Shown: one piece after another, positions 21,547-46,164 of the stretch | Layout of the letters: each line of letters starts with the position of its first letter | How positions within the stretch are numbered: position 1 is the stretch's first letter | From: Candidatus Nanoarchaeia archaeon | Lineage (GTDB): Archaea; Nanobdellota; Nanobdellia; Pacearchaeales; GW2011-AR1 | DNA length: 64,000 bases | Assembly (NCBI GenBank): GCA_028718805.1 | Contig: JAQUKY010000007.1 | Span: forward strand, 18,176 to 82,175 | Direction of reading: 5' to 3' | Made by a program: the position numbers and the translations under genes | Notes under the pieces: generated by a model | Told to the model about the DNA's origin: nothing | Seen by the model: the letters and a program-made list of their open reading frames with translations, nothing else | Database searches by the model: none

Positions 21547-21729
21547 CTCTCACCCTTTTTTTTGTCTTTTACTCATTGTTGTAATGGAATATATACTTTT
21601 AAATGTTATTTATTTTATTTTTTGGTAATTTATTCAACGAATTTAAGTTGTTTTTGAGTTTTTATCAAGCTATTTTTCAGCAGCTTAATTTTCTCAATAT
21701 CATCTTATCTAGTTTTTGATATTACTGAT

Positions 21730-22371: not shown

Positions 22372-22520
22372 TTTTTGTTTTATATCTAATTTTGTTTATT
22401 GTACTTTTATCTGTAATATATAGCTCTATACACTTTGATTTTTGTTGTCATAATGTTTTAGTATTTTTTTATTACTAATTCTCTTTTATAATAAATCTTT
22501 ATTTGCGTTTATTAATATTT

Positions 22521-25307: not shown

Positions 25308-25435
25308 TTTATAAATATTGTCTTAATATTTATAATTAACTAAAAGGAACTTGAAATCATAAGTGTCTTAGGCACTCATCTGCAAAGCTAGTAATAGTTA
25401 ACATTATTGATATAGTAAAAATATAAAGAACAAAT

Positions 25436-26329
25436 TTATCTCTGCTTTTTCTTCTTTCTTTTCTTTTTAGAAATCAAATAAAGGTAATAAGTAACAACTA
25501 AAATTACAATAACTGCGATTACATTTATCCATGTGAAAAAATTTAACTTTGTTATGTCTGTGCAAGGCTTTGTTTCGGGATCAACAGCACAATTCATATC
25601 TTCATGGGGGTTTATGACTGTCCAATTCCATATAATCATTCCATTAGGTTGAGTGCACTGGCTGTCATCTACAGTTATAGCATATTGGCAGAATCCAAAA
25701 GTATAATTATCTCTGTCATTACAATCCTTTATTTTGCTTGCATCTGCCAGGCATTTTTCTTCTGTTGCATTCCATACACAACTGCAGGAAGTAAAATTAG
25801 AGCAAATTTTGATTCCGACTTCCCAGGGCTTGTCAACAGCCTTATTGCACCACCCCTCTCCGTATACACTGCTGCTTTCAATGCTTTCTATTGCTACATC
25901 AGGGACATAATTTTCACATTCATCTTCTCCATAAGAAGAACAGCTGGTTACATTTGAAATAAGGCACTTGTATTTATCATCATCAATTACATTAGGCAAT
26001 AATTGAACTGATTCTGAAAGCTGACCTGTGATTAACTGGCAGGTATTAAATGTAGAGCCTGTTTTTGGGCAGCAAGCACCCTCCCCAACAAAATCATAAC
26101 CACTCCCAAAATCCCTGCAGTCAAAAACAGGATCTGCCCCAACAGTAGCATAAGAGTTATTTGTAATTGTATCTACCCATTTAGTATGGTTATATTCTGA
26201 AGGGCAAAAAATACCCTCTTTAATAAAAACTGTGGAGCTGGTTTCTCCAAAATAATCTCCAGCAGCCAAAACTGAGATTAGGAAAATAAACAGGAAAAAT
26301 CCTAATCCAAACAATATTCCTTTTTCCAT
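25436..26329 (-). CDS. Cys-rich secreted protein with a C-terminal TM and poly-Lys tail
   Basis: Signal peptide, about 30 Cys residues, TM helix, then KKKRKKKKQR. Confidence 0.5.
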   Translation of the reverse strand: MEKGILFGLGFFLFIFLISVLAAGDYFGETSSTVFIKEGIFCPSEYNHTKWVDTITNNSYATVGADPVFDCRDFGSGYDFVGEGACCPKTGSTFNTCQLITGQLSESVQLLPNVIDDDKYKCLISNVTSCSSYGEDECENYVPDVAIESIESSSVYGEGWCNKAVDKPWEVGIKICSNFTSCSCVWNATEEKCLADASKIKDCNDRDNYTFGFCQYAITVDDSQCTQPNGMIIWNWTVINPHEDMNCAVDPETKPCTDITKLNFFTWINVIAVIVILVVTYYLYLISKKKRKKKKQR

Positions 26330-26340: not shown

Positions 26341-26410
26341 TACCAGTAATGTCAAACTCTATTTCGCTTTGTAGATGAGCTGATTAAGCTTACTCTTCTC
26401 ACCAATCGCG
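26341..26410 (-). promoter_or_regulatory. conserved upstream/leader element, instance C, upstream of the 25436 Cys-rich gene
   Basis: taagcttaatcagctcatctacaaagcgaaatagagtttgacattactgg. Confidence 0.45.
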
Positions 26411-26466
26411 TTTTAGTGTTTTTTTGTTACTGATTTTTATATTTATTATTAATATATAGTTTTAAT

Positions 26467-28305
26467 TTAAGTGGTATATTTTGTTTTTAAATTTAATGCG
26501 TGTTTTCCAGGCTCATTAAAGACCTTTATGAATTCAACAACATCACTATGATTAGTGCCATATTTTCCATTTAATTTAGTAGGGCTATTATCAAATGTCC
26601 ATTCCATATCTATTTTATTTTGATTTGTTGATTCTCCTGCCATCAAATAACAATAAATTCCTTCTTTTGTTATTGTATCATTTACTACATAACAAGAAGG
26701 GCTAGAAGCCGAGCATTCACTTAAAGTATAACTGCAGTTAACAACATGAGTTGCACTTGCATTTACCTTAACAAACCTGCCGCTAATCTGCTGCATTTGG
26801 TCAGGGTTAGGATCTGTTATAATTGCAAATACATTTATTCCTTTTCCATAAACATAAACTTCTGTTGCATCATAAGCAGATTGTGTTTCAGTAGGTGTTC
26901 TCGGAGGAGACATTTCGCTTGCAGTCAGTTTTATAGACTTGGTTCCAGAAGTTGTGTAAGAATGAGTTGTGTTTCCTAATCCAGTGGCTATAATATTATT
27001 AAAAGAGGTTATATTGCTGTCCCCAAACTCCCAGGTTAATTTCAAATCATCATCAGAATCAGAACTTGTTTGTTCAAATGGGATGTCAACAGTTTCCAAT
27101 GTTATTTTATTGATAACATAAATATCTTTATACAAAGGACTTTTTATCTGAGTTGTTGGGGGGGCATTATTATAAATACCTTTTTTTACAACCAGATATT
27201 CTGAAGTTTTTCCATCAGCCATAAAATAAAATTCTTCTTCACTTCCCTCTATTTCCAGACCATCTCCTAAGTCAAAATCACTTTGGGTAATTGTCCACTT
27301 TGCAGCAATTTTTCCGTTAAGATTAAAAGTGTTTGTTACTGTTCTAATATCCTCGTCTATAAGAAGTTCAATAAGGTCGTCATATTCTTTTATATTAAAT
27401 TCATTCCCGCCTGTTTCTGAAATCATTAACACAGTTTCTCCTATTTCAGCAGTGGTTATAGGATTCCCGTTCATATCAGCCCAGTAAACATCAGTCACAG
27501 CAGATTTACAGCAGATTTTTATTGGATAATTTGTATCAGAAGCATTTGAAATATGAGAATTGTTATTTTGGTATAATCTTACTACAATCTCTCCTTCGTT
27601 AGTGCATGTATTCCCTCCAGTTGTATCAGCTTCACAACTTAAATCACCATAACAAACATCATAATTGTAAGGAAAAGGCCCATTTGCTGTTTGAGCATGA
27701 GAATTTGTAGATTGATATAACTCAATAATTTTGTTTGTTCCAGTACAAGAATGAGGATTTACTCCTGCATAAGAAGTACCAAAAATTGTAGAATAACAAA
27801 TATCTTGAATATAACTTTGATTCCACAAAGCGCAATGAGAATTTGTTGCAGAATAAAGTTTCATTATTATTTGATTTTGAGGGCAGGGAGGAGGGGCAGG
27901 AGACCCGGAAAAAAACTCATTCGAAAGGTTATATATTGAACTAATCCCTCCGCAACCACTGCAATTACAATCACTTGCCTGAACAGGAACATTTCCATTT
28001 CTTGCGTAACTAGGGCATTCAGACCATCCTGAAATATTAGATTGAGCACAATCTCCAGTGCCAGGAGTGTCACAATCAGAAGGAGAATAAAGAATATAAT
28101 AATCTTCACTTACTCCTCCAGTGCACCCACCCACATCAGAAAACCATCCTCCAGGATTGCTGACAAAAATTGCACCACAAGCATTTGTACAAGTTGGTGT
28201 TTGTGGCTCACAACCCGCAATTCCTGCATTCGCAATCCCGATTAAACTTGCAAATAATCCAAAAGCTAAAACTATTAAAACTAAAAATTTCCAGCCTCTT
28301 TTCAT
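26467..28305 (-). CDS. secreted Cys-rich PKD-domain surface protein
   Basis: Signal peptide. PKD signature WEFGDSN...HSYTTSGTKSIKLTASE. Confidence 0.55.
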   Translation of the reverse strand: MKRGWKFLVLIVLAFGLFASLIGIANAGIAGCEPQTPTCTNACGAIFVSNPGGWFSDVGGCTGGVSEDYYILYSPSDCDTPGTGDCAQSNISGWSECPSYARNGNVPVQASDCNCSGCGGISSIYNLSNEFFSGSPAPPPCPQNQIIMKLYSATNSHCALWNQSYIQDICYSTIFGTSYAGVNPHSCTGTNKIIELYQSTNSHAQTANGPFPYNYDVCYGDLSCEADTTGGNTCTNEGEIVVRLYQNNNSHISNASDTNYPIKICCKSAVTDVYWADMNGNPITTAEIGETVLMISETGGNEFNIKEYDDLIELLIDEDIRTVTNTFNLNGKIAAKWTITQSDFDLGDGLEIEGSEEEFYFMADGKTSEYLVVKKGIYNNAPPTTQIKSPLYKDIYVINKITLETVDIPFEQTSSDSDDDLKLTWEFGDSNITSFNNIIATGLGNTTHSYTTSGTKSIKLTASEMSPPRTPTETQSAYDATEVYVYGKGINVFAIITDPNPDQMQQISGRFVKVNASATHVVNCSYTLSECSASSPSCYVVNDTITKEGIYCYLMAGESTNQNKIDMEWTFDNSPTKLNGKYGTNHSDVVEFIKVFNEPGKHALNLKTKYTT

Positions 28306-28428
28306 ATTCTACAAAGAAAAAACAAGTTTATAAATATTGTCTTATTCTTAACCCTTATTCTTATTTGTTTTTATTGCATTAAGAATAAACTAATACTATA
28401 ATAAAAGATTAAGACAAAATAAAAAAAT

Positions 28429-28455
28429 TTATCATCTGCAAGGCTTAAAATAGTT
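28429..28455 (+). promoter_or_regulatory. same core motif upstream of paralogue A, followed by a TTTAAATA TATA box at about 28474
   Basis: atcatctgcaaggcttaaaatag. Confidence 0.4.
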
Positions 28456-28511
28456 TAATAAATCATTAAAAACATTTAAATATGGCCATTCATTAATAAC
28501 AGTAGAAAAAG

Positions 28512-29309
28512 ATGGTGTCATTAAAAGTTAATATTCATAAAAAAGATTTATGGCTTTTGTCTGCCATAGTTGTATTTCTGGTCGGAGTTGCTTATGTTAT
28601 TGCATATAATCCTAACTGGCAGACATCTCCAGGAAATCCTGCTGTGATGGGACACACTCCTGATGAGATTGAAGGGGGAGGGTGGGTTCATAGTGGGGCT
28701 GTAATATTTAGTGGTGATTGTCCTTCTAATTGGACATCATTAAACACTGGAATTGGAAAAAGAACTTTGGTTATGTTAAAGGTAGAAAATAATCAAGCAA
28801 CTAGTCATGTTATGTATGATTTTAAGCCAAAAGGAGAAAGCAGAAATCTTGGACCTACAGGCAGTTATTCAGGGCAGGTTTCTTCTGCCTTTGTATTTGC
28901 AAGTGATATAGGTTATTTTATGGTTGAAACAGATGCAAATGGTGAATTAGAATGGAGGGGTACTCCTCCTAGTCTCGCAACAGCTATCACTTTGATGGGA
29001 TATTTAAATTCTGGTGGAGGTTCTGGAACAGGTGGAGCACAGATAAAAACAGGAACTTATACTGGAAATGACGGAATCCAGGAGATTAATGTTGGGTTTA
29101 TGCCTGATAGTGTTACGTTTATAAATCATGGGAGTAGTTGGGTTAGCCATAAGACAAAGTATATGCCTAGTGCTTATGCCAAATATGCAGATGCTTATGC
29201 AGATAATTTAGTTAGCTTAACTACTAATGGTTTTAGGCTTGAATCAGGACAAAGTTCTTTTAATGGAAATGGCCAAACCTATTCTTACACAGCAATGAAA
29301 GACGGTTAA
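28512..29309 (+). CDS. signal-anchored surface protein, paralogue A (first 32 aa identical to the 31572 gene)
   Basis: N-terminus MVSLKVNIHKKDLWLLSAIVVFLVGVAYVIAY is shared exactly with paralogue B. The bodies diverge but keep a PxNPAV-GHT-E-EG motif. Confidence 0.5.
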   Translation: MVSLKVNIHKKDLWLLSAIVVFLVGVAYVIAYNPNWQTSPGNPAVMGHTPDEIEGGGWVHSGAVIFSGDCPSNWTSLNTGIGKRTLVMLKVENNQATSHVMYDFKPKGESRNLGPTGSYSGQVSSAFVFASDIGYFMVETDANGELEWRGTPPSLATAITLMGYLNSGGGSGTGGAQIKTGTYTGNDGIQEINVGFMPDSVTFINHGSSWVSHKTKYMPSAYAKYADAYADNLVSLTTNGFRLESGQSSFNGNGQTYSYTAMKDG

Positions 29310-29312
29310 ATT

Positions 29313-29493
29313 AAATAAAAAGAAATCCACATCATTTATGATGTGGTGCTGATAATCGCTAATGCTGTGATTTAAACGCTTGTGGAAGCAGGTTCAATAA
29401 ATTGAAGTCCACAGAGCAAAGCGGATAAGAGTAAAGATATAAGGAAGCCCACGCATTTATGCGTGGGAGGATGTCACATGTATGAAAATCTAT
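29313..29493 (+). repeat. copy 2 of the ~165-nt structured repeat (extended 3' identity with copy 3)
   Basis: Starts 3 nt after the stop codon of paralogue A. Confidence 0.8.
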
Positions 29494-29569
29494 AAAAACA
29501 AAACTATTTCTGCCATATTCAATTATCTTCTTTAGAATTAAAAGCTTAATTCATTTTCTAAAAACCTTT

Positions 29570-30946
29570 TCACCCTTTCATAACAGCAATAGGAATCAAT
29601 TTTGCGACTAAATTTCCAATTCCTGCTTCGTGGCTTACTCTTACAACTTCGTCAATATCCTTGTACATCTGAGGAGCTTCTTCGCTTAATCCTTTCCAGC
29701 TTCCAGCTTCAACATCAATACCCTTTTCATTTAATTGTTTTTTTACATCTTCTCCCCTCACAGATTTTCTTGCAGAAGTTCTTGAGGCAACTCTTCCTGC
29801 ACCGTGGGCAGTGCTTCCAAATGAGACTTCCATTGCTTTTTCTGTTCCGATTAAGACATAGCTTGCGGTTCCCATGCTTCCTGGAATTAAAACAGGCTGG
29901 TTGGGAAAACTTCTTGTAGCTCCCTTTCTCATAACTAAAATTTCTTTTTCTTTTCCATCAATAATGTGTTTTTCAATTTTAGCAATATTATGGCAGACTT
30001 CATAAACAACATCGATTTTAACATTTTTAAAATAATGTTTAAATTGCTCTCTCACCCAGTGAGTTATAATCTGCTTGTTTGCAAATGCAAAATTTGCAGC
30101 ACAATTCATAGCAGAAAAATATTTTTTTCCTAATTCGCTTTTAATAGGAGCATTTATAAGCTCTCTGTCATATTCAGGCCAGCCATATTTATCTTCCATT
30201 AATTTAATATAATCACTTGCAACTTGATGTCCAAGCCCGCGACTTCCACAATGAATCATAATTGTAATCTGGTCTTTCTCTAATCCAAGTTTTTTTGCGG
30301 TTTCAAGATCAAAAATCTTCTCAACTTTTTGGATTTCAAGAAAATGATTTCCAGCTCCAAGAGTTCCCAGCTGCCCGATTCCTCTTTGCCTTGCTCTTTT
30401 TGAAACATCATCTGGATTGCAGGGATTTAAATTTCCATTTTCTTCCAAATGTTTTAAATCTTCTTTATAACCATAACCTTTTTCAACAGCCCATTTTGCC
30501 CCTTTTTTTAAAACTTCATCAAGCTCTTTATAAGTTATATTAACATTGCCCCCTCTTCCAACACCAGAAGGAACTGCCCTGAACAAAGAATGAAGAATCT
30601 CTTTTTTCTTTTTATCATTTAAATCACCAGCTTTTAAGTTTGTTTTTAATAAGCGAACTGAGCAGTCAATATCATATCCAACTCCTCCAGGAGAGATAAT
30701 TCCTTTATCTAAATCAAATGCAGCAACCCCCCCTATACTAAATCCGTAGCCTTGGTGAGCGTCCATAAGAGCAATACTATATTTCAAAATTCCAGGCAAA
30801 GTTGCAACATTTTTAACTTGCTCTAAAGTTTTATCTTCTTTCATTTTTTCCATAAGCTTCTCACTAGCAAAAATCTTCCCAGGGACTAGCATTTTCCCTT
30901 CCTTAGGAATTTCCCATTCATTTTCTGATATTTTTTTTAGTTTCAT
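29570..30946 (-). CDS. rtcB: RtcB RNA 3'-phosphate ligase (tRNA-splicing ligase)
   Basis: Conserved RtcB motifs, for example HQGYGFSIGGVAAFD. Length 458 aa. No intein. Confidence 0.9.
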   Translation of the reverse strand: MKLKKISENEWEIPKEGKMLVPGKIFASEKLMEKMKEDKTLEQVKNVATLPGILKYSIALMDAHQGYGFSIGGVAAFDLDKGIISPGGVGYDIDCSVRLLKTNLKAGDLNDKKKKEILHSLFRAVPSGVGRGGNVNITYKELDEVLKKGAKWAVEKGYGYKEDLKHLEENGNLNPCNPDDVSKRARQRGIGQLGTLGAGNHFLEIQKVEKIFDLETAKKLGLEKDQITIMIHCGSRGLGHQVASDYIKLMEDKYGWPEYDRELINAPIKSELGKKYFSAMNCAANFAFANKQIITHWVREQFKHYFKNVKIDVVYEVCHNIAKIEKHIIDGKEKEILVMRKGATRSFPNQPVLIPGSMGTASYVLIGTEKAMEVSFGSTAHGAGRVASRTSARKSVRGEDVKKQLNEKGIDVEAGSWKGLSEEAPQMYKDIDEVVRVSHEAGIGNLVAKLIPIAVMKG

Positions 30947-31350
30947 ACATCCACCACAACTTGTATTGTGTATTTATCTTTTTCCTTTTTCACAAACATC
31001 TCGCTGTAGGTTATAGCCTTTACATTATTGCTGAATTTATAACTTTCAGCATCATCTCCGATAACTTCTGCGATTAATTTGTTATTTTTAATCTTTATAT
31101 CTTTTATCTTTGATAATAAAAAATCTTCCGCATCTGATAAATATAAAAATTCCTCAAGGAAATTGTATAACAATCTTTCATTATTCTTTCCGCTAATTTC
31201 AAATTTTTTGTTTATTCTGCTTTTAACTTTTATCCCTCTGGTCATTATTTCTTTTAAAGCCAAAGCCGCATTTACAAAAACTTCTTCCAAACTTTTTCCA
31301 AATGCCTGAAATTTTATGTCTGCCGTATGTTCTAAAAATTTGAATTTCAT
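30943..31350 (-). CDS. archease (RtcB cofactor)
   Basis: N-terminal FLEHTADIKF archease motif. The 4-nt overlap with rtcB suggests translational coupling. The probable start is the Met of MKFKF. Confidence 0.8.
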   Translation of the reverse strand: MKFKFLEHTADIKFQAFGKSLEEVFVNAALALKEIMTRGIKVKSRINKKFEISGKNNERLLYNFLEEFLYLSDAEDFLLSKIKDIKIKNNKLIAEVIGDDAESYKFSNNVKAITYSEMFVKKEKDKYTIQVVVDV

Positions 31351-31448
31351 AAATAACATAGAAAATAATGATATTTATAATTAACTAAGATTAATAATGA
31401 AATAAAATGAGCTAATCTATAATAAAAAAAAGAATAAAGCTATGAAAG

Positions 31449-31490
31449 AGAAGCTTAATCTGCTCATCTGCAAGTCTTATTGTAATTGCT
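31449..31490 (+). promoter_or_regulatory. same core motif upstream of paralogue B
   Basis: aagcttaatctgctcatctgcaagtcttattg. Confidence 0.4.
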
Positions 31491-31571
31491 TCTGTTCTAG
31501 AGGCTCTAAACTTTTAGGCCGTATATTAAAAACATTTAAATATGGCCATTCATTAATAACAGTAGAAAAAG

Positions 31572-32021
31572 ATGGTGTCATTAAAAGTTAATATTCATAA
31601 AAAAGATTTATGGCTTTTGTCTGCCATAGTTGTATTTCTGGTCGGAGTTGCTTATGTTATTGCTTATGGCTCAAGCCCTGCAAACCCTGCTGTTTTTGGG
31701 CACACTGCAAATGAAGTTGAAGGGGTGAATAATGCATGGGTTAAATTTAATGGTAGTGCTTCTGTGAGTGGAAGCAGAATATTAGGAAGTAAGGGTGTTT
31801 CATCTGTAACTCATGATGGTGCCGGGATGTATAATATAACCTGGGAAACTCCCTTTGCAAGTTCTAACTATTTAGTTATTGTAGACCCCGGATATATAGA
31901 TGAAGGATCAACGCAATCAGTTACTCCGAATAATGTTGTTGTATGGGTGCATAATAACGGGGGAGCAAGTGGAGGAACCTGGGCAGATACTGATATTGTT
32001 TATGTCATGGCGTCAGAATAA
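31572..32021 (+). CDS. signal-anchored surface protein, paralogue B
   Basis: N-terminal 32 aa and upstream 140 bp are identical to paralogue A. The body diverges. Confidence 0.5.
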   Translation: MVSLKVNIHKKDLWLLSAIVVFLVGVAYVIAYGSSPANPAVFGHTANEVEGVNNAWVKFNGSASVSGSRILGSKGVSSVTHDGAGMYNITWETPFASSNYLVIVDPGYIDEGSTQSVTPNNVVVWVHNNGGASGGTWADTDIVYVMASE

Positions 32022-32068
32022 TAAATTATTATAATCTAATTAATTTAGATCAAAATTTCCTTTTTATT

Positions 32069-32249
32069 AAATAAAAAGAAATCCACATCATTTATGATGT
32101 GGTGCTGATAATCGCTAATGCTGTGATTTAAACGCTTGTGGAAGCAGGTTCAATAAATTGAAGTCCACAGAGCAAAGCGGATAAGAGTAAAGATATAAGG
32201 AAGCCCACGCATTTATGCGTGGGAGGATGTCACATGTATGAAAATCAAT
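32069..32249 (+). repeat. copy 3 of the ~165-nt structured repeat
   Basis: Lies 47 nt after the stop of paralogue B. Its 3' extension gatgtcacatgtatgaaaatc matches copy 2. Confidence 0.8.
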
Positions 32250-32253
32250 ATTT

Positions 32254-32685
32254 TCATTTCATCCAGACAAAAAATCTTAGTTTTTTTGGATTATAATATG
32301 TAAGATTAGAGGTTACTAAAACTTCTGTTGCATAAATATTTTTTTCATATAAAGATGAGTCAGAAGCATATGCAGGGTTATCACATATATCATTTATATT
32401 ACAGATATTGGTTGTAAAGTTCCAGCTATTGGGTATTATCTTAGAAATAGCCTCATTAACTCTTGTATTGCTGTTAATGATTATATCATTTCTTAGGCTG
32501 TCATTCTTGCTTATAATATCTAAAATTTGTCTTTGCTCCTTGTAAATCGAATCAGAGATATCTGTTTCAGGAGCTTTTCTGGAAATGATAACTAACATAG
32601 AACCTACTATGAGTAATATGGCTAGAAACACTTCTAAGATTCTTATCCAAGCTTTCCTGTCTATTTTACTTATTCTTTTCTCCAT
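32254..32685 (-). CDS. pilin-like protein with a putative class III signal peptide
   Basis: DRKA/WIRILEVFLAILLIVG resembles a prepilin cleavage site plus hydrophobic stretch. Confidence 0.4.
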   Translation of the reverse strand: MEKRISKIDRKAWIRILEVFLAILLIVGSMLVIISRKAPETDISDSIYKEQRQILDIISKNDSLRNDIIINSNTRVNEAISKIIPNSWNFTTNICNINDICDNPAYASDSSLYEKNIYATEVLVTSNLTYYNPKKLRFFVWMK

Positions 32686-32700
32686 CTTTTTATTTTTTGT

Positions 32701-32775
32701 CTATAATTTCACTCTTTTTCCGCTTTGCAGATGAGTAGCAAATCTTATTTCTCTCATGCATAACTTACTTCGTCT
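32701..32775 (-). promoter_or_regulatory. conserved upstream/leader element, instance B, upstream of the 32254 pilin-like gene
   Basis: See instance A. Confidence 0.5.
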
Positions 32776-32834
32776 TTGTTTATTACCCACATTCACTTTT
32801 TATTATAAATTAAATAGTGTTATATCTTTTGTAT

Positions 32835-33482
32835 TTACCACACTCTTATATTTAATATTAATTCCTGGATCTGCCCGTTATTGTTGATAACTCTTACTGG
32901 AATATCCCTTGATTCAACATCAATCCCCTGAGGGATGTTTCTGTCAACACTTAGCTCAGCAGTTTCATTTTCAAGCAAATCTCTTGTCTTAAACAAAAAA
33001 TCATTTGTTATTCCTAAATTTTCTTTCAAATTATCATAACTATCATCACTCATTTCATAACTCGTTTTTAATTTTTTAAGATTATCTTCTAAAATCATTT
33101 CTTCTTTGGAATAGACTCCCAATGTATAATTTGTTTGATTACAATTAATATTTTTTATAGTGGCATTATTATTAAAAATATCATTAAAATAAATAGTATA
33201 TTTTATATTGCTCTCTTGAACTTCTTGATAATCCCCATCATAATCTGCTTCATTAAAATAATAACAAGTTCCGTTTACATTTAAAATTATAGAGAGTTTT
33301 CCAACACTATCACTTATGTTATTGATTATTCCCTTCTGAGCATTATCCATAATGTAATTCGGTTCTTCTGTCTTGGCAAAAGGGTTCAGAAAAATAAATG
33401 TAAATATCAGAAATCCAATAAAAATCACAAATGAAATCATAACTTCCACATGCCCCTGTGCGCGTTTTTCTTTTTTTCTCAT
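32835..33482 (-). CDS. pilin-like protein with a putative class III signal peptide
   Basis: KRAQG/HVEVMISFVIFIGFLIF. Confidence 0.45.
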   Translation of the reverse strand: MRKKEKRAQGHVEVMISFVIFIGFLIFTFIFLNPFAKTEEPNYIMDNAQKGIINNISDSVGKLSIILNVNGTCYYFNEADYDGDYQEVQESNIKYTIYFNDIFNNNATIKNINCNQTNYTLGVYSKEEMILEDNLKKLKTSYEMSDDSYDNLKENLGITNDFLFKTRDLLENETAELSVDRNIPQGIDVESRDIPVRVINNNGQIQELILNIRVW

Positions 33483-33496
33483 TTTTATTCTCCCCG

Positions 33497-36400
33497 TTAA
33501 TTTTTATATCTTTTTTTGCTTTTGATTATTGTCAAAGCAATAGCAGCAATTATGATAATAACAATAATATAAATCCAGTATTTCTTCAATAAACTTTCAG
33601 TCTTTCCAGTTGTATATTCTGTCATGTTTTCAGTATTGTTAATTAATGCATTCTGTCCTTCTTCTGTTTCAATCTTTTCATAAACGCTTTTTAACGTTAA
33701 ATTAGCCAGGTTGCTTGTTATGCTGTTTAATTTAACATAAAGGTCATAATAAGAATCATTAGTTAATTCAACTTTCCACTCTTCTCCAGCACTCATTAGT
33801 TTTTCCTGCTTTTCACTTGAAATGCTTATCAGTGCAGTTTTGCTTGTGTAATTGATATCTTTGACTTTCAGTTCATGACTTTTGTTATTAATATTAAAAT
33901 TAAATTTCCAGTTTTCTCCTAGTGATTTTGTATATCCATTAGATAAGCTCTCTTTATTAATAGTATAAACTGGCAGTCCTCCTCCGCCAGAAAGACTTGT
34001 TGCAGGCGTAGGGATATCAATTGAAAAACTGACATTCATTGTATCATTTCTGTTTCCTGCTGTATCATTGCAGTAAAACTTAGCAGTATAGCTTCCATCT
34101 CCCAAAGATTTAGTATAATTAAAATTTCTATTATCTGTTGTGTTCATTGTATAATTCGTAATCCCTGAATCAGTTGAATATAAGCAAGTTCCATTGTCAT
34201 CTAAAGTCACATTAAATAATGTTTGGGAAGTTGTGTATGTTGTTGCAGTTGGAGAGTTGATTGTTACTGATGGTGCAATTGTATCAATCAACAGCTGGTT
34301 GCTTCCAGATGCGGTTTCTATACCAGATATATTTAATGTCAAAAGATTTGTTGTTGTGTTATAGTTATATTCTGATGAAGAATAAGTTTTGTTATATGCT
34401 CCTGTATGTGAAGTGAATCTAGGTGAAGAAGGAATTACCGAGGTGTTTATAATTACTGTTAGATTATTTATAGTATCTGTCAAGTTGCTAGAAATATTTC
34501 TTATATTCCCATCAGAATAACTAAACCAGACAGGGGATTTCTCCCTCGAAGTTCCTTCTGTCATATTAAAGTTGTCTAAAACATAGGAATAATTGCTTGG
34601 TGTTAAGGTGATGTTTATGTCTCCATCATTTGAGTTTATATTTGAACTTCCTGCTATTGAATTATTTGAATAATAAATTAATGCATTCGTTAAATTATAA
34701 ATCTGCAACATATAACTATCTGTCGAGTTTGTATTATTAAGCAGAATATATGTTTCTGTTGTTGGATTATATTTATTAAAGAAAAGATTTACCCAAGAAT
34801 AAAGATACTTGCTTGAAGGTGTGAATACTCCTGTTAAGAGATTTATTGTGTAATCTGCTGTTTCTGCCAGAGTTATATTTATACCATCATTTACCCAGGC
34901 AGGACTAGCTGTCGTGCTTCCTAAACTTCCATTATGCAAACCCCCCCCTGAAGAATCATAAGCTATTGTTCCATTATTCTCATTGAATTTATATCTCAAA
35001 ATTAAATTAGTTGCATTTAAATAAGTCATAATGGAATTGTATGTTTGATTAGTATATCCAGTATAAGAAGGAGCATTATTTGCTGGATTAACAACCCCCC
35101 CATGCCACATGTGAATATAATCATCATTTCCTGTTAAGTTATATAAAAATGTTGGTCTATACAAGCCAACATCCCAGCCAGAATTAGGAGCTTCCATTAC
35201 AAAATTAGAATAAGCAGTAAAATACAGAGGATTTGAAGTTGATGCATTAGCAAAACGAATCCCGCCGTTTCCATTATACATCATCCAATATTCATTTTTG
35301 CTTGGAACTTCTATAACATCTAAATGCCACAAACCAAAAGGATGTACTGAGAATGTTACATTATTTATTAAGGTCCAGTTTAATCCGTCTGTGGAATTAT
35401 AATACATAACTAATTGCGATGCATTCCTGTTTTGGCACCACATGCGCCAGATATTATCACTACCATCTATAATTGAACAGGACCTGCTTGAATCTCCTTG
35501 AGAAAGATTCCATGATGCTGTCAGTATTTCATAATTCCAGGTAATTCCATCTGAAGAATTTTGCGAAAGAAGTGTTATGATAGAACCATTAGTCTCAAAA
35601 TAATATGCCCTTAACATATCATTTGTAGAATCATAAACAATATCGATATCTGCATGATAATTTCCAGCAGAAGTTGAATTTATTGGGTTTGTTAACCCAG
35701 CCGGAACCTGCCATCGGGTAGTCGGGCTTAAGCAGGAATCATTGCATACAAATATTGATGGATTTTCAACTTTAGAACTTCCATCTGCAAGCGGCGTATT
35801 TCCCATCCAGTATTTCCATCCATTCCATGTATTTGCAAAATACAATATAGATGGATGTATTGTTTGATTGCTCCCATCATAAGTTGGGATAAAAGTATGA
35901 TCTGTCTGATTTGGGAAAGTGTAACTTTTAGAAATAAATCCTCCAATTTCTGCAGAAGAATTAGTATATAATTGAGATATTTGCGCAGAAGTTAAAACAC
36001 TATTCCAAAAGCGAAAATCTCTTACGGAACCGTTAAAATATACCCCCAACAAAGGATTACCGCCAATAGTGGAATTATAGTTATATGAAGCGGGGAATTT
36101 TGGGGGGCAGGAAGTAGTCACATTCAAGTTTCCATCAAAAAAAATGCTTATATTAGTCAAATCCCAGGTTACAACTGCATTATGCCATTTAGTTGTCTCA
36201 GTCAAAACTTCATCTGCAGAAATTGCACAGTCTCCGTAGGAGCTGGCAAAATAAAATTGCAAGTCATTTTCATCTGCAAATGCTGTCCTTAAAACATAAG
36301 CATAAGAACTGGCTGCTGAACTCCTGTAAAAAATTGGCTTGGATTTCTCGATTTTATTCAGTTTAAACCACACTGAGAAAGTTGCAGCATGATAACTTAA

Positions 36401-36694
36401 ATCAAGGTCATAACGAGCATCACTTTTAGTATTAACAAAATCATTAGTGCCATCAAAACTAAGCCAAGTTGTATTTTTAACAATAGCAGAAAAATTGCCT
36501 ATATAATTCTGGCCTAGATTATTTGTAGAATTTGTTACGAAACTGCTCGAAAAATTAGATATATTGACATTGGAGGTTACATATTTTAATGCATTATTAT
36601 CATCAGAATAAATTGTCACAGTACTAGTAACAATAACTGATAAGAATGAAACTGCAACAAAAAACATTCCCAATAAAATCAATATTTTTTTCAT
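33497..36694 (-). CDS. giant (1065 aa) secreted surface protein with a C-terminal TM anchor
   Basis: Signal peptide. The body is rich in Asn, Ser and Thr with many NxS/T sequons. A conserved membrane-proximal domain is followed by a TM helix and a KSKKRYKN tail. Confidence 0.55.
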   Translation of the reverse strand: MKKILILLGMFFVAVSFLSVIVTSTVTIYSDDNNALKYVTSNVNISNFSSSFVTNSTNNLGQNYIGNFSAIVKNTTWLSFDGTNDFVNTKSDARYDLDLSYHAATFSVWFKLNKIEKSKPIFYRSSAASSYAYVLRTAFADENDLQFYFASSYGDCAISADEVLTETTKWHNAVVTWDLTNISIFFDGNLNVTTSCPPKFPASYNYNSTIGGNPLLGVYFNGSVRDFRFWNSVLTSAQISQLYTNSSAEIGGFISKSYTFPNQTDHTFIPTYDGSNQTIHPSILYFANTWNGWKYWMGNTPLADGSSKVENPSIFVCNDSCLSPTTRWQVPAGLTNPINSTSAGNYHADIDIVYDSTNDMLRAYYFETNGSIITLLSQNSSDGITWNYEILTASWNLSQGDSSRSCSIIDGSDNIWRMWCQNRNASQLVMYYNSTDGLNWTLINNVTFSVHPFGLWHLDVIEVPSKNEYWMMYNGNGGIRFANASTSNPLYFTAYSNFVMEAPNSGWDVGLYRPTFLYNLTGNDDYIHMWHGGVVNPANNAPSYTGYTNQTYNSIMTYLNATNLILRYKFNENNGTIAYDSSGGGLHNGSLGSTTASPAWVNDGINITLAETADYTINLLTGVFTPSSKYLYSWVNLFFNKYNPTTETYILLNNTNSTDSYMLQIYNLTNALIYYSNNSIAGSSNINSNDGDINITLTPSNYSYVLDNFNMTEGTSREKSPVWFSYSDGNIRNISSNLTDTINNLTVIINTSVIPSSPRFTSHTGAYNKTYSSSEYNYNTTTNLLTLNISGIETASGSNQLLIDTIAPSVTINSPTATTYTTSQTLFNVTLDDNGTCLYSTDSGITNYTMNTTDNRNFNYTKSLGDGSYTAKFYCNDTAGNRNDTMNVSFSIDIPTPATSLSGGGGLPVYTINKESLSNGYTKSLGENWKFNFNINNKSHELKVKDINYTSKTALISISSEKQEKLMSAGEEWKVELTNDSYYDLYVKLNSITSNLANLTLKSVYEKIETEEGQNALINNTENMTEYTTGKTESLLKKYWIYIIVIIIIAAIALTIIKSKKRYKN

Positions 36695-36824
36695 TTTGGT
36701 TTTCCCTATTTTTTGATTTATTTTATTCCTAGTAATTTATTAAACTATTTAAGTTTTATTAATCATATTTTGCTTAACTCTTAGTGATATTTGTCTTTGT
36801 ATATTATCCATCTTTATTTATTTT

Positions 36825-37718
36825 TCATCCTATAAGAACCTTGGCACCCGTACTGATTAATACTGCCAATGCAACTAATATAAACGAATGTTTTAATCCT
36901 GCCATCATTTTCCCTTCAGCTAATTTTCCTATTACTAATCCTGCAAAAAACCCCTGGGCTATTAAAAGCCATAAGAAAGGTTGTGCTAGTTGCTGTGCTG
37001 TTGCAATATCCCCCCTTGTCCCTAGATTGAATCCTGGAATTCCTTCTGCACCTGAACCCATTCCGCTCCCCAAACCCGAAGCAATAGGCAATATCTTAAA
37101 CTGCATAACCAGCATTATTATAATAAATATAAAGAAAATAATATATCCCTGCACCATTAAAGTATACATAGCAGCCCTTCTTTCTTTTTTCAATTTTTCA
37201 ACTTGAGACACAGATTTCGCAACAGCTTCAAGGATATCATCTATTTTCCCTCCTGCTTTTTCAGCTTCGCTTATAATTGTAACAGCTCTGGTGACTGTTA
37301 GGCTGTTAACATCTCGTGAAAATGTTTCTAATGCGCTTTTAACTGGTATTCCAAGAGCAATCTGATTTGCCAACTTATTGATGTGGGGATTTAACTTGCC
37401 ATAATCTTTTTTCCTGACATTTAATATGCTTTTGCTTATAGGAGTTCCTGCTTTAACATTTTCAACAAGGTTTCTTGCAAACTCCAAAAACATCTCTTCC
37501 CTTTCTCTTTCCGCGCTTGTTGTCAAAATTATAGAGACAAAAAACGGAAACATAGCAATAACTATTGCTAATCCAAGGACAAAATAAAATATATCTGTCT
37601 CTTTTAGAAAGATAATTGATAAAACTATCGTAGTAATTGCCACGATTAACCCAACTATCTGCCCCTTGTTTGGCTTGTATCTTCTCCAGTCTATGTTTTG
37701 CAAAAAGTCCATTTCCAT
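36825..37718 (-). CDS. type IV pilus platform protein, TadB/GspF-like half (single T2SSF domain)
   Basis: TM, then a cytoplasmic helical domain, then TMs. This is the typical single T2SSF-domain architecture. Confidence 0.55.
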   Translation of the reverse strand: MEMDFLQNIDWRRYKPNKGQIVGLIVAITTIVLSIIFLKETDIFYFVLGLAIVIAMFPFFVSIILTTSAEREREEMFLEFARNLVENVKAGTPISKSILNVRKKDYGKLNPHINKLANQIALGIPVKSALETFSRDVNSLTVTRAVTIISEAEKAGGKIDDILEAVAKSVSQVEKLKKERRAAMYTLMVQGYIIFFIFIIIMLVMQFKILPIASGLGSGMGSGAEGIPGFNLGTRGDIATAQQLAQPFLWLLIAQGFFAGLVIGKLAEGKMMAGLKHSFILVALAVLISTGAKVLIG

Positions 37719-37740
37719 TTTTTGTTTTGTTTATTTTTAT

Positions 37741-37800
37741 TCTATCTATAATCTCAAACTTTTATTCGCTTTGTTATGATTGCTCAAGCGTTTTAGTTTG
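37741..37800 (-). promoter_or_regulatory. related upstream element, upstream of the TadB-like gene
   Basis: aaacgcttgagc...acaaagcgaataaaagtttgagattatag. Confidence 0.4.
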
Positions 37801-37985
37801 AGTTTTACGGATTATGTTTTTTATTAATTTGTTAAACGATTTAAGCTTTGCAGATTATTTCATTAAGCCTTTTTTTATAGCTTTATGTTGTTCTGTCTTA
37901 GCTTATCGTCTTCTGATATTATTGATTTAGTTTTATTTTTAGTATTTGTTTATTACCGATTTTTATATTTATTTTGATTATCATT

Positions 37986-39347
37986 TTAAAATATTGGTTG
38001 TTTTAATCTTAGGAATAATAAAAATCCTACATTTAAGATTACTAAGCACAATATAATTAATACCGCCATTATTTCGGTTGTTAATCCCAAGAAAAACATT
38101 CCAGTGCTTCCCATTATTATAAACAACATTAATAAAATCATTGGGGCCGCAATAGAAATGCTTATATAAATATCCATCAGGGTTTCAGCTGTTTTGGTGT
38201 ATCTTTCCCTTTCTAGTCTATAATCAAATAATAATCCTTCTGCATGTTTATCTAAAAATTCATGCAAATCCCCACCAGAAGTTATTGTTGTAGCTAGGCC
38301 GTCAAGCAATTCTCTTAATTTTGATGAAGGGCTTGAACCAGCAACTCTCTTCAATGCAGTTACAAGGTCATAACCCTGAAAGTTTATAAGATTAAGAAGT
38401 TTTCTGAACTCCAACCTTGTGTTTTTATATTCTTCACTTTTTATAATAATCTCAAATATTGTTGTAGGTTCAATTCCAGAAGTTGCTATTGCAGACATAT
38501 GAATTGCAACAAAAGGCAGTTCCTGATCTATTTTTGCGCTTATGTTTCTGCCCTCGCTCTTAGGGTAGAAATACATAAACATGCCGGTTCCTATTGGAAT
38601 TGCTAAAACAACCCAGAATATATTAAAAAATCTTAATAATAAAGGTTCATCAATAGGAGTTATGCCGCCAAGGCTTATTTTATAAAATAATAAAAATACC
38701 ATCAAAAGTATGCTAAATATTGCAGCCAGCATCATTGTAAACAGGATCATCGAAGCATAGGTTCCAACAACAAAAGGAGAGTTCATCCTTCTCAAATCTT
38801 TATTTAATGGTTCTAAATAACCTTTCATTAGCAGCTTGTTTGAAGTGTTTCTGAAAAATTTGTTGGATGTTTTAGCATAAAAACTAGGCTTTCCAAAGGA
38901 AGCAATTGGCCTTTCAACAGAGAATTTGTTTTTAAGCTGATTAATAGTCAGGTTGCTTTTGCTTAGATTTTCGAGGAATTCTCTCCTGTCTTTTTCACTA
39001 ATTGTTATTTCGACCTTTTCTTTATTAATACTTGGTCGATATTTAATTTGTACAAGCTCTTTTTTAGCTTCGGTTTTATGAACTTCAGGAATCCCCTCAG
39101 ATACTGTTAACTTTTTATAGAACATCACATCTCCTATCAGTTCCGGGATTGATTTGTTTAATATTTTTAACTGAACCATAAGTGAATCAATCGCATCATT
39201 TAGAAGCTTTTTCTCTCTGAGGTTTATAACAATCTTGCTTGTAGCTTCAAGATTTTTGATTAAATTTAACTGATTTGTGAATACATACATTTCTCTGATT
39301 ATTTCCTTCATTCTAAGCATGTTTTGTCTTAATGCATCTGTGCTCAT
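37986..39347 (-). CDS. type IV pilus platform protein, TadC/GspF-like half (single T2SSF domain)
   Basis: N-terminal cytoplasmic region, TMs, a T2SSF-like cytoplasmic domain, then further TMs. Confidence 0.55.
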   Translation of the reverse strand: MSTDALRQNMLRMKEIIREMYVFTNQLNLIKNLEATSKIVINLREKKLLNDAIDSLMVQLKILNKSIPELIGDVMFYKKLTVSEGIPEVHKTEAKKELVQIKYRPSINKEKVEITISEKDRREFLENLSKSNLTINQLKNKFSVERPIASFGKPSFYAKTSNKFFRNTSNKLLMKGYLEPLNKDLRRMNSPFVVGTYASMILFTMMLAAIFSILLMVFLLFYKISLGGITPIDEPLLLRFFNIFWVVLAIPIGTGMFMYFYPKSEGRNISAKIDQELPFVAIHMSAIATSGIEPTTIFEIIIKSEEYKNTRLEFRKLLNLINFQGYDLVTALKRVAGSSPSSKLRELLDGLATTITSGGDLHEFLDKHAEGLLFDYRLERERYTKTAETLMDIYISISIAAPMILLMLFIIMGSTGMFFLGLTTEIMAVLIILCLVILNVGFLLFLRLKQPIF

Positions 39348-39350
39348 TTT

Positions 39351-39523
39351 TAATTCACCTCCGTGATCTCCGAGATTCTCTGATAAAAGTCAAAAATAAC
39401 TTTTTTAGCCTTTTCAAAATTCTCACTGTCATTATCCTGGTAAGCTCTTTCTAGTCTGTTTATTGCTACTTCCATGCTGTCTATCAACTGGGCTAATAGT
39501 TGTAAATGTTCTAAATCCGCCAT
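39351..39523 (-). CDS. small ORF (57 aa) between the ATPase and the platform gene
   Basis: Missed by the ORF track because of its size. Its stop overlaps the start region of the platform gene. Confidence 0.3.
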
Positions 39524-39640
39524 TTTTTTGTTTGTATAAATTGAACTTTATTCAGTAATCTATCAAACGATTTAATATGAGGCAATCATCTTCTTGCTTA
39601 ATTGCTCCTTATTGATTCGTATTTGAAGTTACCAATACAG

Positions 39641-39805
39641 TTAAATTTTTATTTTGTTATTTTTAACCTCCTCTTCTATTTTCTCTAAAACAGCAATATT
39701 AACAAATTGCCTGGCATTTGAATATTTAATTTTCATAGAACCATCTTTGATTAATTTCTTTATTTTCTTCAGTAATTCCTCATCTATCTTTACTACATCT
39801 GTCAT
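39641..39805 (-). CDS. small ORF (54 aa), possibly a ribbon-helix-helix protein
   Basis: MTDVVKIDEELLKKIKKLI... has an RHH-like pattern. It is preceded by the conserved leader element. Confidence 0.3.
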   Translation of the reverse strand: MTDVVKIDEELLKKIKKLIKDGSMKIKYSNARQFVNIAVLEKIEEEVKNNKIKI

Positions 39806-39810
39806 TTTTT

Positions 39811-39890
39811 GTCAGTAATTTCACTCTTTTTCAGCTTTGCAGATGAGTTCGTTAAGCTTAATCTTCCCATCCATAACTTATTTCGTTTTT
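39811..39890 (-). promoter_or_regulatory. conserved ~70-nt upstream/leader element, instance A, upstream of the small RHH ORF and platform genes
   Basis: Shares cgaaRtaagttatgSatg...taagcttaa...ctcatctgcaaagcKgaaaaagagtgaaatta with instance B, with 1 mismatch over the 33-nt core. Confidence 0.5.
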
Positions 39891-39995
39891 ATTTATTACT
39901 AATCCTTTAAACTGTTTATATCTAGTTACTAAAAATAACTTTAAATAACTATCAATAACTTATAGTAACCTATATTTAAAAATCTTGCTGTTCTG

Positions 39996-42900: not shown

Positions 42901-43028
42901 TGATCCCAATAAATATGGACGCTAACATAGGGAGAAATAAGGACATACCTGACATTAATTTTTGTTTTGTCCTCCATTTTAGGCAGGGCAGGTATTGTGG
43001 GGTTTAAATTTATTTCTATGCGTTGCAT
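39996..43028 (-). CDS. FlaI/TadA/VirB11-family secretion ATPase interrupted by an intein (527-aa extein)
   Basis: Walker A GGTASGKTT. The Asp box reads IED, then the intein, then TREINLP in place of IEDTPEL. Downstream His-box and VirB11-like motifs are present. Confidence 0.8.
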   Translation of the reverse strand: MQRIEINLNPTIPALPKMEDKTKINVRYVLISPYVSVHIYWDQRVGELLYNIEEPVLSDNEKSLLVVLERSLEEMINVNILVEKTKEAMIDYIDKTSRLLIEELALTVGEESYKKIFYYLFRNFVGLNEIEPLMRDFFIEDIECNGINTPIFIVHRLYRNMKTNIKFDSMDKISSFVEKIAQRCGKYISYASPILDGSLPDGSRVNATYTVDVTSRGPTFTIRKFTKVPWTPIQLLSMKTISPEMLAYFWILLEHKSNILISGGTASGKTTLLNAIAFFIPPESRVVSIEDSVTGDSKIIIKENEKIRNITIKEFVDNKIDAEVMTLNENGKIIFVKPYSHIKHTVKKDIYEILTRTGRKVKVTQDHSLFSLGENGLIEIKPTELKEGESFIAVPRALPIEGQNIKEINLMSYLEYFEGDFLAGKPIKKIFEKYKLKDFKVEKEKYRWWKEHDIIKIEDFKKIRENFSYDELKELRIKSKNTSSIPVIFNVSNNFLEFCGLWLGDGSYDNYNGNSVILSNIDEECRNVLKNVAEYLKAGYSEMNDGGVSLRIHSTIFYKFMKNVLRFDGCSNSKKIPDFIFGLSNEQVKHFIRGYFSADGCAKKSEVSCASQSINILETLQTLLLRFGIISRINDFDRKDKCINMSISDSANISKFTDIGFLQERKNEKVIEMLRKKSWHTHSDIVPLSINQLKDVNTNKILSWPYLQGMQNIGRDYLQKIAIPGSLFNDLSHSDIFWDRVKKINKIEPKETEVFDLSIPDHEKFIVDNIFVHNTREINLPRENWLPSVSRTSLGLGNFGEVDLFSLLKNSFRQNPDYVIVGEVRGKEAFVLFQGMASGHSSISTMHADSVDTLVKRLETPPIELSPTLLNTLDCVAVMTHAIVNKQQTRRLREIVEIINVDPKGIALTNTPFVWNAREDVFYFKKDSKVFEKIAERYGLTLEELGKEFEFRTKLLYEMQKRRIFDFNQNQKIFNEYHKDPVAVLKAFGIPFETESAPPEYENPAYEQAY
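40707..42155 (-). mobile_element. intein (483 aa) with a LAGLIDADG homing-endonuclease domain
   Basis: Block A is SVTGDSKI with Ser1. Block B contains VTQDH. The two LAGLIDADG motifs are LWLGDGSYD and IRGYFSADG. The C-terminal HN is followed by Thr+1. Junction codons were checked against the DNA. Confidence 0.75.
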
Positions 43029-43188
43029 TTTTCCTCTTTTTTGTTTTATCAGTAATCTATAAAACGAGGCAGTATGTACCTGAGTAGATTAAGATGTTAT
43101 TCATAAGCTTACTGCCGATTGCTCCTTATTTCCTCGTTTTTTGCATTACTGGTTTAGTTTTTATTTATATCTTAATATCCTTTTATAT

Positions 43189-44705: not shown

Positions 44706-44743
44706 ATTATTATCTTGTTTTTTTAATTTAAATATTTATTGTT

Positions 44744-46111: not shown

Positions 46112-46164
46112 TTTATAAATAAATCAAGTAATTTAACATATATAAATATTTAGAAATAAAGTGC

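Follow-up and report, generated by a model that had tools for sequence, protein, structure and literature searches.

What is the sequence that recurs upstream of pilus and surface-protein genes in contig JAQUKY010000007.1 of a Candidatus Nanoarchaeia archaeon, and does it mark a set of genes under common control? The stretch analyzed here (positions 18,176 to 82,175 of the contig; 64,000 nucleotides, 32% GC; hereafter the window) carries an archaeal type IV pilus locus on its minus strand. A sequence-only reading of this DNA had proposed that a conserved element of 60-75 nt serves as a promoter or leader signal for a regulon of pilus and surface genes. Our analysis indicates that the motif is probably a lineage-specific palindromic repeat embedded in gene leaders, comparable to MITEs (transposable elements of miniature size with inverted repeats) and to the ERIC and Correia repeats of bacteria.

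The repetition itself was confirmed, and every copy listed earlier is present. With up to two mismatches allowed, the core CTCATCTGCAARGC has eight matches in the 64 kb against 0.73 expected, a number reached in none of 100 shuffles, and seven of the eight lie within 25.3-39.9 kb. These include the core predicted before both paralogous surface genes on the plus strand (copies E and F below). Three minus-strand copies, A (39813-39895), B (32703-32782) and C (26344-26423), were recovered by a joint nhmmer profile with E values of 1e-25, 4e-24 and 6e-22, respectively. Copies A and B, described before as nearly identical over about 70 nt, share 80% identity over 91 nt and are near-identical only across the 3' ~45 nt; identity is 74% for A/C and 65% for B/C. 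Searches with a covariance model (CM) found about 14 family members in the window. Contig L146 is 99.9% identical to window positions 1-9795 and extends the window by 9 kb.

The repeated unit is longer than had been proposed. It spans ~90 nt (family range ~85-110 nt) and is an imperfect palindrome with the ends (C)AGTAAT...ATTACT(G), a feature that went unnoticed in the sequence-only reading. Four stem segments (AGTAAT/ATTACT, AAACG/CGTTT, TAAGCT/AGCTTA and GGATGAG/CTCATCT) close a loop of ~18 nt holding AAGCTTAATC, and the previously reported core corresponds to this loop plus the inner 3' arm. The full-length copy A (TAGTAAT...ATTACTG, 39811-39901, minus strand; CM 77.2 bits, E 1e-12) ends 5-8 nt before the ATG of a 54-amino-acid open reading frame (ORF), which is weakly similar to ribbon-helix-helix (RHH) proteins (RHH_1 E 0.1, below threshold), and its hairpin is weak (folding z-score −0.8). 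Full-length copy B (32699-32788, minus; CM 55.3 bits, z −2.5) lies upstream of a 143-amino-acid pilin-like gene at 32254-32685. Full-length copy C (26343-26432, minus; CM 79.7 bits), which has variant-b arms, precedes a 297-amino-acid Cys-rich gene at 25436-26329 and forms a long hairpin with z −4.4 to −4.7.

Folding of the leaders, a check suggested by the earlier reading, supports a long hairpin with co-varying arms. Either strand of the family consensus forms one long hairpin (z −5.4); many individual copies fold poorly. Full-length copies have a mean z of −2.0, and 24 of 55 fall below −2 with the same architecture. In the window, folding is good for copies C, D1 and D2 (z −4.4 to −5.6; the last two are described below), intermediate for B and poor for A. 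In a MAFFT alignment of 18 copies, 81% of the cells are paired against 36-44% with slid partners, with 15 double-sided changes against 8.3 ± 2.2 after shuffling. For 53 CM-aligned copies the corresponding values are 78.6% against 35-46%, and 66 against 34 ± 5, with a covariation of 0.187 against 0.122 that none of 500 shuffles reached. The outer helix, made of the terminal inverted repeats, is 88-95% paired, with two pairs showing compensatory changes; taken by itself, the inner stem shows none and is 71% paired. By eye, two variants of the 3' arm (AGCTTAAATCGTTT and AGCGAAATAGAGTTTG) pair up with matching variants of the 5' arm. Folds of single copies from TATG onward gave z near 0, and early negative tests of structure were misleading because the outer 5' arm had been cut off.

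Comparison with relatives shows that the element comes and goes. Sequences related to the larger platform protein of the pilus belong to metagenome-assembled genomes of Pacearchaeota and Woesearchaeota; the platform protein is 80-90% identical in contigs L080-L085 and 60% in L004. The two minus-strand platform genes, T2SSF1 (37986-39347) and the TadB-like T2SSF2 (36825-37718), abut or overlap in L080, as they do in 18 of the 20 more distant loci compared. A spacer of 130 nt separates them in L085; in the window it measures 268 nt and in L083 355 nt, and the number of copies at this one junction varies from none to one, two or three. In these three genomes a remnant of the old start (TAAAATGRA) lies on the left of the junction and a new AAAAAATG start on the right. 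The spacer of the window contains two elements, both on the minus strand. D1 (37816-37910; CM 28.2 bits, E 0.014; z −5.2) bears the core ATAATCTGCAAAGC at 37822-37903. D2 (37746-37804), directly 5' of T2SSF2, is a short hairpin variant without the CTCATCTGC core, with the stems CTCAAAC/GTTTGAG and CGCTT/AAGCG (z −5.6), and was matched by the 3' module in nhmmer. The element reported earlier before the TadB-like gene at 37741-37800 thus exists, as the core-less D2, whereas the core-bearing D1 beside it had been overlooked.

A second junction gives the same picture. In L003 the RHH-like ORF overlaps a 57-amino-acid ORF; in L005, 26 nt lie between the two, and in the clade of the window they are separated by ~117-150 nt filled by a copy. 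In the window this is copy J (39553-39634, minus; CM 22.8 bits, E 0.18; 3' module E 0.017), a member of the 'GGAGCAAT' subfamily, and the orthologous sites in L080, L085 and L083 hold core-type copies. The 137-nt spacer between the same two ORFs in L004 (~9680-9817) holds a different small hairpin (GAGGTAAAAGCTTAAGCTACTCCTC), and analogous diverged repeat families may occupy this junction in other lineages.

Upstream of the RHH-like ORF, and outside the element, a transcription factor B recognition element (BRE) and TATA box (GATTTTTAAATA, 39973-39984) are followed by three AGTTATT direct repeats (39925-39961, spaced ~10-11 nt; whole region 39925-39984, minus strand). This arrangement is conserved in L085, L083, L003 and L005, that is, out to a 65% identical platform protein. 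The ATG of the RHH-like ORF follows the repeats immediately in L085 and L005 and after 8 nt in L003, all of which lack copy A at the orthologous site; in the window, 117 nt including copy A lie in between. The BRE/TATA box and the repeats are likely the true promoter and operator of the RHH-like operon, and the repeats are a good candidate for an autoregulatory operator of the pilus operon. In relatives the same gene stands under them with no element present, and copy A is therefore not the promoter of this operon. The proposal that the element spans the TATA region, the transcription start and the 5' leader therefore holds only in part: the copies are sense-oriented, close to start codons and probably within transcribed leaders, but copy A lies downstream of the conserved TATA box.

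Turnover is also evident in single copies. One copy in L082 has lost 35 nt of its 5' half compared with L080, and two orthologous copies have lost the core in the window (copy J and 22411-22477) while retaining it in L080, L085 and L119. Spacers in the L083 contig each hold two or three modules in tandem. The pilus operon was ancestrally compact, and the element is an unstable, derived insertion into it.

Insertions placed precisely at the gene starts of a formerly compact operon could also be expected of a portable promoter cassette, in which the 5'-arm GTAATAAATAAAAC would act as a TATA box and the conserved TATG as a start site, each insertion creating a new transcription unit with a ~75-nt leader and splitting the operon. 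The sense orientation of the copies fits, as does an A/T-rich octamer (TAATAAAT) in the 5' arm, 23-24 nt upstream of the conserved ATG (TATG). This distance is shorter than the 27-30 nt that separate TTTATAAA or TTTAAATA from the ATG in the canonical genes of the window. Every conserved block of the 5' half (AGTAAT, AAACG, TAAGCT and TATGGATGAG), including TATG, is merely the complement of a better-conserved 3' block, so that a role as promoter or start codon is not required. Canonical promoters also stand apart from the element. In addition to that of copy A, which works without the element in relatives, they are found downstream of copies E and F. The partial copy E (28431-28473, plus strand; core with one mismatch and 3' arm; nhmmer core E 0.06, 3' module E 0.14) lies upstream of the canonical TATA box of the surface gene 28512-29309. 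Copy F (31417-31500, plus; 5' arm, loop and matching core; CM 37.6 bits, E 1.5e-4) lies upstream of the surface gene 31572-32021, with the canonical TATA box AAAAACATTTAAATA downstream of it. The L082 copy is a natural variant without the 5' half, and covariation of the arms would be purposeless if the 5' arm were not transcribed. We consider a promoter cassette improbable.

The distribution of the family bears on the proposed regulon. No copy was found when the profile was run against the homologous pilus loci of GTDB species representatives, 77 loci with T2SSF at most 65% identical. Contigs L080-L085 carry the element, always sense-oriented and in intergenic spacers. A degenerate pattern of loop and core (AAGCTTRAYNNNYTCATCTNNAAAGC) matched 54 metagenome stretches, of which ~42 are true members with a GC fraction of 0.25-0.32 and nhmmer E <1e-6, the majority sampled in groundwater and sediment; in all, 49 distinct copies were found in 43 sources. 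The family is restricted to close relatives within DPANN (T2SSF at least 80% identical). A viral origin was rejected: of six IMG/VR pattern matches, five are weak and pattern-only (19 bits or less) and one is unmatched by the family profile.

The genes that follow the element are varied. In metagenome copies the downstream gene starts 14-45 nt away and is usually a housekeeping gene. Pfam-confirmed examples in relatives are aIF2-gamma, ribosomal proteins S6e and S27a, a class I Glu/Gln-tRNA synthetase, an SSB-like OB-fold protein, MinD/ParA, CDP-alcohol phosphatidyltransferase, GNAT and UPF0047; some relative loci also have copies before pilus genes. In the same genome, a core-bearing copy on L146 precedes RNase J, and diverged copies in the window precede FttA/aCPSF1, NUDIX, OapB-like and GTPase genes. 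The large Cys-rich surface-protein genes at 46-60 kb have no copy upstream in nhmmer and CM searches of the window.

A site for a regulator of the attachment apparatus, whether a DNA operator or upstream activating sequence (UAS) or an RNA site, for example for the neighboring RHH-like protein, would nevertheless account for what is seen locally. The seven strong core copies all fall within 25-40 kb, the pilus-locus homologues L083 and L123 are also rich in copies, and in the window 10 of 18 upstream regions of pilus/surface genes carry the element against 4 of 30 others (Fisher p=0.003, with gene classes assigned within this analysis). This enrichment, which the sequence-only reading anticipated, is local to the window and does not extend to relatives, where housekeeping genes dominate. 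Since both housekeeping and pilus genes lie downstream, the element is not the signature of a pilus/surface regulon. It is furthermore absent or decayed at orthologous sites of close relatives and absent from the 77 other pilus loci, the RHH assignment is sub-threshold, and the three AGTTATT repeats beside the TATA box, conserved to 65% identity, are a better operator candidate. EarA sites upstream of archaellum operons are known operators of an appendage regulator (10.64898/2026.02.03.703544, PMC13286277). Such archaeal operator or UAS arrays resemble our element as repeated sequences upstream of surface-appendage operons; the element differs in being a ~90-nt palindrome that at the RHH-like operon is found on the downstream side of the TATA box, that is not limited to appendage genes and that is unconserved at orthologous promoters. 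The interpretation as a pilus/surface regulon or shared promoter is thus largely refuted, and a dedicated attachment-regulator site appears very improbable.

The orientation of the copies is strongly biased. Among those with a determinable neighbor, 42 face the start of the downstream gene, 4 face the 3' end of a gene and none lies inside an ORF (p=5e-9). The sense strand is 47% A, and runs of at least five T occur on the antisense strand of 46 of 55 copies and on the sense strand of 8 of 55. Archaeal RNA polymerase terminates at oligo-T. A copy inserted in reverse into a leader or operon would be polar and would be selected out, which would explain the orientation bias without invoking a function.

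In the favored reading as a palindromic repeat, one small, Pacearchaeota-like DPANN clade would have seen copies inserted into its intergenic spacers, tandemly duplicated there, swapped among subfamilies and deleted. Insertion would have taken place at junctions of the once spacer-free pilus operon, and also between an existing promoter/operator and the start codon. Copies would survive almost solely with the A-rich strand as sense, as the oligo-T of the other strand would stop transcription. The element would ride in 5' leaders and inter-cistronic mRNA, where it may fold into a long hairpin, and would add spacer and possibly a protective 5' structure, acting neither as a promoter nor as a pilus-specific control site.

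The main rival is a functional RNA hairpin in the 5' leader, with the stem and the invariant loop (AAGCUUAAUC..CUCAUCUGCAAAGC) bound by a global RNA-binding protein or shielding the message from 5'-to-3' exonucleases; the element would then be kept because it is useful and would define a broad post-transcriptional regulon not specific to pili. It is supported by the strict sense orientation with a start codon 14-45 nt downstream, by the compensatory changes in the stem and by a loop and 3' arm far better conserved than the 5' arm. The genes concerned also appear to differ in how they are translated: the canonical genes of the window are probably leaderless, while element-bearing genes have no TATA box at −27 to −30 and several have Shine-Dalgarno-like GAGG or GGAG sequences, which argues that they are leadered. 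On the sense strand, G-U type pairs outnumber A-C type pairs (137 vs 74), but most of this excess was already present in the consensus. Folding is equally good on the sense and antisense strands and so uninformative for distinguishing RNA from DNA, and the covariation signal is also expected from a DNA palindrome. Orthologous copies decay or are deleted or replaced, a large number of copies, A among them, have poor folds (z −0.3 to −0.8), and the downstream genes share no functional theme. Rfam holds no family for the element: there was no match at the gathering threshold over the window, and at E ≤1 over 25000-46500 the only hit was the signal recognition particle (SRP) RNA elsewhere in that range. 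We regard a functional leader hairpin as possible but unlikely.

Other RNA assignments were also considered. A tRNA search of the window found none, no complementarity of the loop to the 3' end of 16S rRNA was seen by eye, and C/D-box small RNA and kink-turn readings were rejected because box spacing and G-A pairs misfit on inspection by eye. The SRP RNA mentioned above is archaeal and lies at 46161-46423 on the minus strand. It is a full-length match to RF01857 (68.6 bits, E 1e-13) that a default scan misses because its score is below the gathering score of 96.5.

The conserved ATG raises the further idea of a leader peptide, in which an upstream ORF of 12-17 codons (M..KLNxLICKA*) would regulate the downstream gene. 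An ATG 15-40 nt upstream of the core is in the KLNxLICKA frame in 19 of 33 cases, with a stop at TAA/TAG of the 3' arm. The ORF is intact in only 19 of 56 copies, whereas 23 have no ATG and 14 use other frames, and the frame of copy B differs from that of A. The most variable position of the core is the second base of the Cys codon (TGC/TTC/TCC/TAC), as expected for an internal loop but not for a selected codon, and a preference for spacings in multiples of three is based on very few independent indels. A leader peptide is scarcely credible.

Small palindromic repeats in transcribed intergenic DNA are well known in bacteria, including ERIC/IRU in enterobacteria, Correia in Neisseria, and RUP and BOX in Streptococcus pneumoniae. 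They were first mistaken for regulatory sites of the genes beside which they were found, BOX being the classic case. Like our element, they are AT-rich imperfect palindromes of ~100 nt, exclusively intergenic and multi-copy, with subfamilies and modular or mosaic forms, and they vary in presence among close strains and are co-transcribed with their neighbors, as the element here probably is. The present family differs by its occurrence in a DPANN archaeon, its near-constant orientation and its position within ~50 nt of a start codon; in addition, duplication of TA or another target was not found, and the loop and one arm are best conserved rather than the termini. REP/BIME sequences and the palindromes derived from IS200/IS605 elements (REPINs with RAYT, and PATEs) are likewise hairpin-forming intergenic repeats, and a Y1 gene lies beside the pilus locus of L080. 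REPs are ~35 nt long and usually occur as inverted doublets, and PATEs extend over several hundred nt. The element differs from them in length, the L080 gene is not flanked by it, and no conserved target tetranucleotide was seen.

Several characteristics of MITEs were found: the element is shorter than ~500 bp, non-coding without a consistent ORF, multi-copy and dispersed, has terminal inverted repeats, and shows filled and empty sites among relatives. A prokaryote-wide census recorded the highest archaeal MITE densities in DPANN, with 100-146 per Mb in Ca. Altiarchaeum and a Woesearchaea genome (PMC11602168). Our element shares with archaeal MITEs its small size, non-coding nature, terminal inverted repeats, intergenic location, taxon specificity and density (~15 copies in 74 kb). 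It may depart from them in target-site duplication, for which the signal was not significant (p ~0.1), in the lack of a parent insertion sequence (one candidate checked) and in some boundaries that extend past the inverted repeats. With target-site duplication and transposase lacking, it is best described as a palindromic intergenic repeat of the MITE kind, not as a proven strict MITE. A literature search for a DPANN promoter or leader motif of this kind found no description.

A number of observations weigh against this assignment. In the target-site duplication test, the longest common substring of the flanks averaged 5.19 against 4.85 ± 0.22 in permutations (p ~0.1, n=21), and only one junction has AAAATGRA duplicated on both sides. 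No cognate transposase was found, the single candidate examined being the IS200-like Y1 gene of L080, whose flanks are unlike the element. The segment inserted at the RHH junction is larger than the palindrome, overshooting its terminal inverted repeats by 23 nt and 7 nt. A 4-bp stem is all that RNAalifold finds by itself (none or 4 bp with extended or truncated alignments). The 18 seed copies behind the 15 double-sided changes were hand-picked for canonical length, the CM alignment behind the best covariation figures leans toward the given structure, and the copies are related by descent, so that shuffle controls overstate significance. A function could account just as well for the strong polarity and for the short distance to start codons. 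The loop and 3' arm are much better kept than the 5' arm, an asymmetry that is uncommon in palindromes that are purely selfish and that hints at a role dependent on the sequence. These features could be reconciled in a mobile 5'-leader module put to use by the DPANN clade, its loop and 3' arm read by a dedicated RNA- or single-stranded-DNA-binding factor, pasted before start codons and uncoupling operon genes, or else mobilized by an orientation-specific mechanism that targets A-rich start-codon sequence. We consider such a module doubtful.

The L080 gene itself (13994-14338, minus strand) encodes an IS200-type Y1 transposase of 114 amino acids, adjoins the pilus locus of this 82%-identical relative and is absent from the window. 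Its link to the element was rejected, as it is not flanked by copies.

The remaining copies in the window are mostly partial or diverged. Copy H (45447-45530, minus; diverged core; CM 30.1 bits, E 0.0056; 5' module E 0.0012; z −2.9) precedes the pilin-like gene 44744-45427, one of the minus-strand genes with class III signal peptides at 43189-45427. Copy I (43050-43151, minus; CM 21.7 bits, E 0.3; 3' module E 0.028), a weak match of the 'GGAGCAAT' subfamily, lies upstream of the T2SSE pilus ATPase (39996-43028, minus). A 3'-arm module alone (36727-36753, minus; nhmmer 3' module E 0.05) is found upstream of the LamG gene 33497-36694; surface proteins of the LamG and PKD types are also encoded in the pilus locus. 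Copy G (25365-25412, plus) consists of an exact core and 3' arm, was matched by nhmmer and faces the 3' end of a gene, with no plus-strand gene downstream. It is placed like copy E, divergently relative to a PKD gene, and is probably a relic of a segmental duplication, also represented by repeat D18 (25251-25330 vs 28270-28349). An inversion switch between the inverted copies G and C, which flank gene 25436-26329, was considered, but a relic of the duplicated divergent region is the better explanation.

Outside the pilus region, a diverged member (21623-21727, minus; CM 24.8 bits, E 0.069) lies upstream of the non-surface OapB-like gene 21163-21546. A decayed copy (22411-22477, minus; CM 19.9 bits, E 0.73) that keeps the ends TAGTAAT...ATATTAC but has lost the core lies upstream of the GTPase gene 21730-22371; the core is intact at the orthologous site of L119. 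A short hairpin of the D2 type (8660-8727, plus; CM 19.3 bits, E 0.97; a weak match, alike by eye) precedes FttA/aCPSF1 at 8782-10671 (Pfam KH_TffA and Beta-Casp). A diverged copy or 3' module at 10695-10781 lies upstream of the NUDIX gene 10845-11315, with the strand unclear (CM E 0.2 on minus and 0.93 on plus; 3' module on plus, E 0.032). An orphan 3'-arm module (20474-20507, minus; nhmmer 3' module E 0.019; repeat family D20) occupies a convergent intergenic region. The copies listed in the sequence-only reading are real, but G, H, I, J and the diverged housekeeping copies had been missed.

A second repeat of ~185 nt occurs in at least five copies, at 12138-12322, 29310-29494, 32066-32250 and 63168-63352 on the plus strand of the window and at 3066-3251 of L146. 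Four copies are 94-99% identical, and the copy at 63168 is 72% identical without gaps or 97.7% by BLAST. The repeat has two strong terminal hairpins (CCACATCATTTATGATGTGG and CCCACGCATTTATGCGTGGG; fold z −3.6), its middle resembles the variant-b 3' arm of the palindromic element, and metagenome locus L103 contains its 3' end (GGAGGATGTCACAT) as well. It has no Rfam match and could be a non-coding RNA gene or another mobile repeat. Copies lie directly 3' of both paralogous surface genes, 28512-29309 and 31572-32021. These genes share 143 nt at 99% identity (28465-28607 vs 31525-31667, plus strand) spanning promoter, leader and N-terminus, beyond which they diverge completely until both end at a copy of the 185-nt repeat. 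This cassette-like layout suggests recombinational swapping of surface-protein C-termini.

Other repeats and mobile sequences are present in the window and its relatives. The very large Cys-rich surface-protein genes (46735-48294 and 53304-57680) contain, at 47-57 kb on the minus strand, several families of internal direct repeats of 50-260 nt, which are repeated protein modules. The T2SSE ATPase gene of the window (39996-43028) is split by an intein with a LAGLIDADG homing endonuclease that is present in the L083 orthologue and absent from the L080 orthologue (528 amino acids); an RNase J-like gene of L111 looks similarly interrupted when read by eye. The genes for OapC-like, OapB-like and small GTPase proteins are consecutive at 20565-22371 on the minus strand (Pfam OapC, OapB and MMR_HSR1). 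In haloarchaea this trio accompanies the replication origin, and by analogy an origin may lie nearby.

These results remove the tempting but wrong inference of a pilus regulon motif. Even in a DPANN genome that is reduced, a proliferating palindromic repeat persists and has widened the spacers of a type IV pilus operon whose ancestral form was compact. In metagenome-assembled genomes the family gives rise to breaks in assemblies and to wrongly called promoters, and it may be of practical use as a strain or clade marker. Repeats of this type do not usually keep so nearly absolute a sense orientation or lie so close to start codons, and these traits offer a natural experiment on oligo-T termination and on leadered versus leaderless translation as constraints on where selfish DNA lives. 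Were the element instead a mobile module put to use by its hosts, it would represent a genome-wide post-transcriptional control or stabilizing signal.

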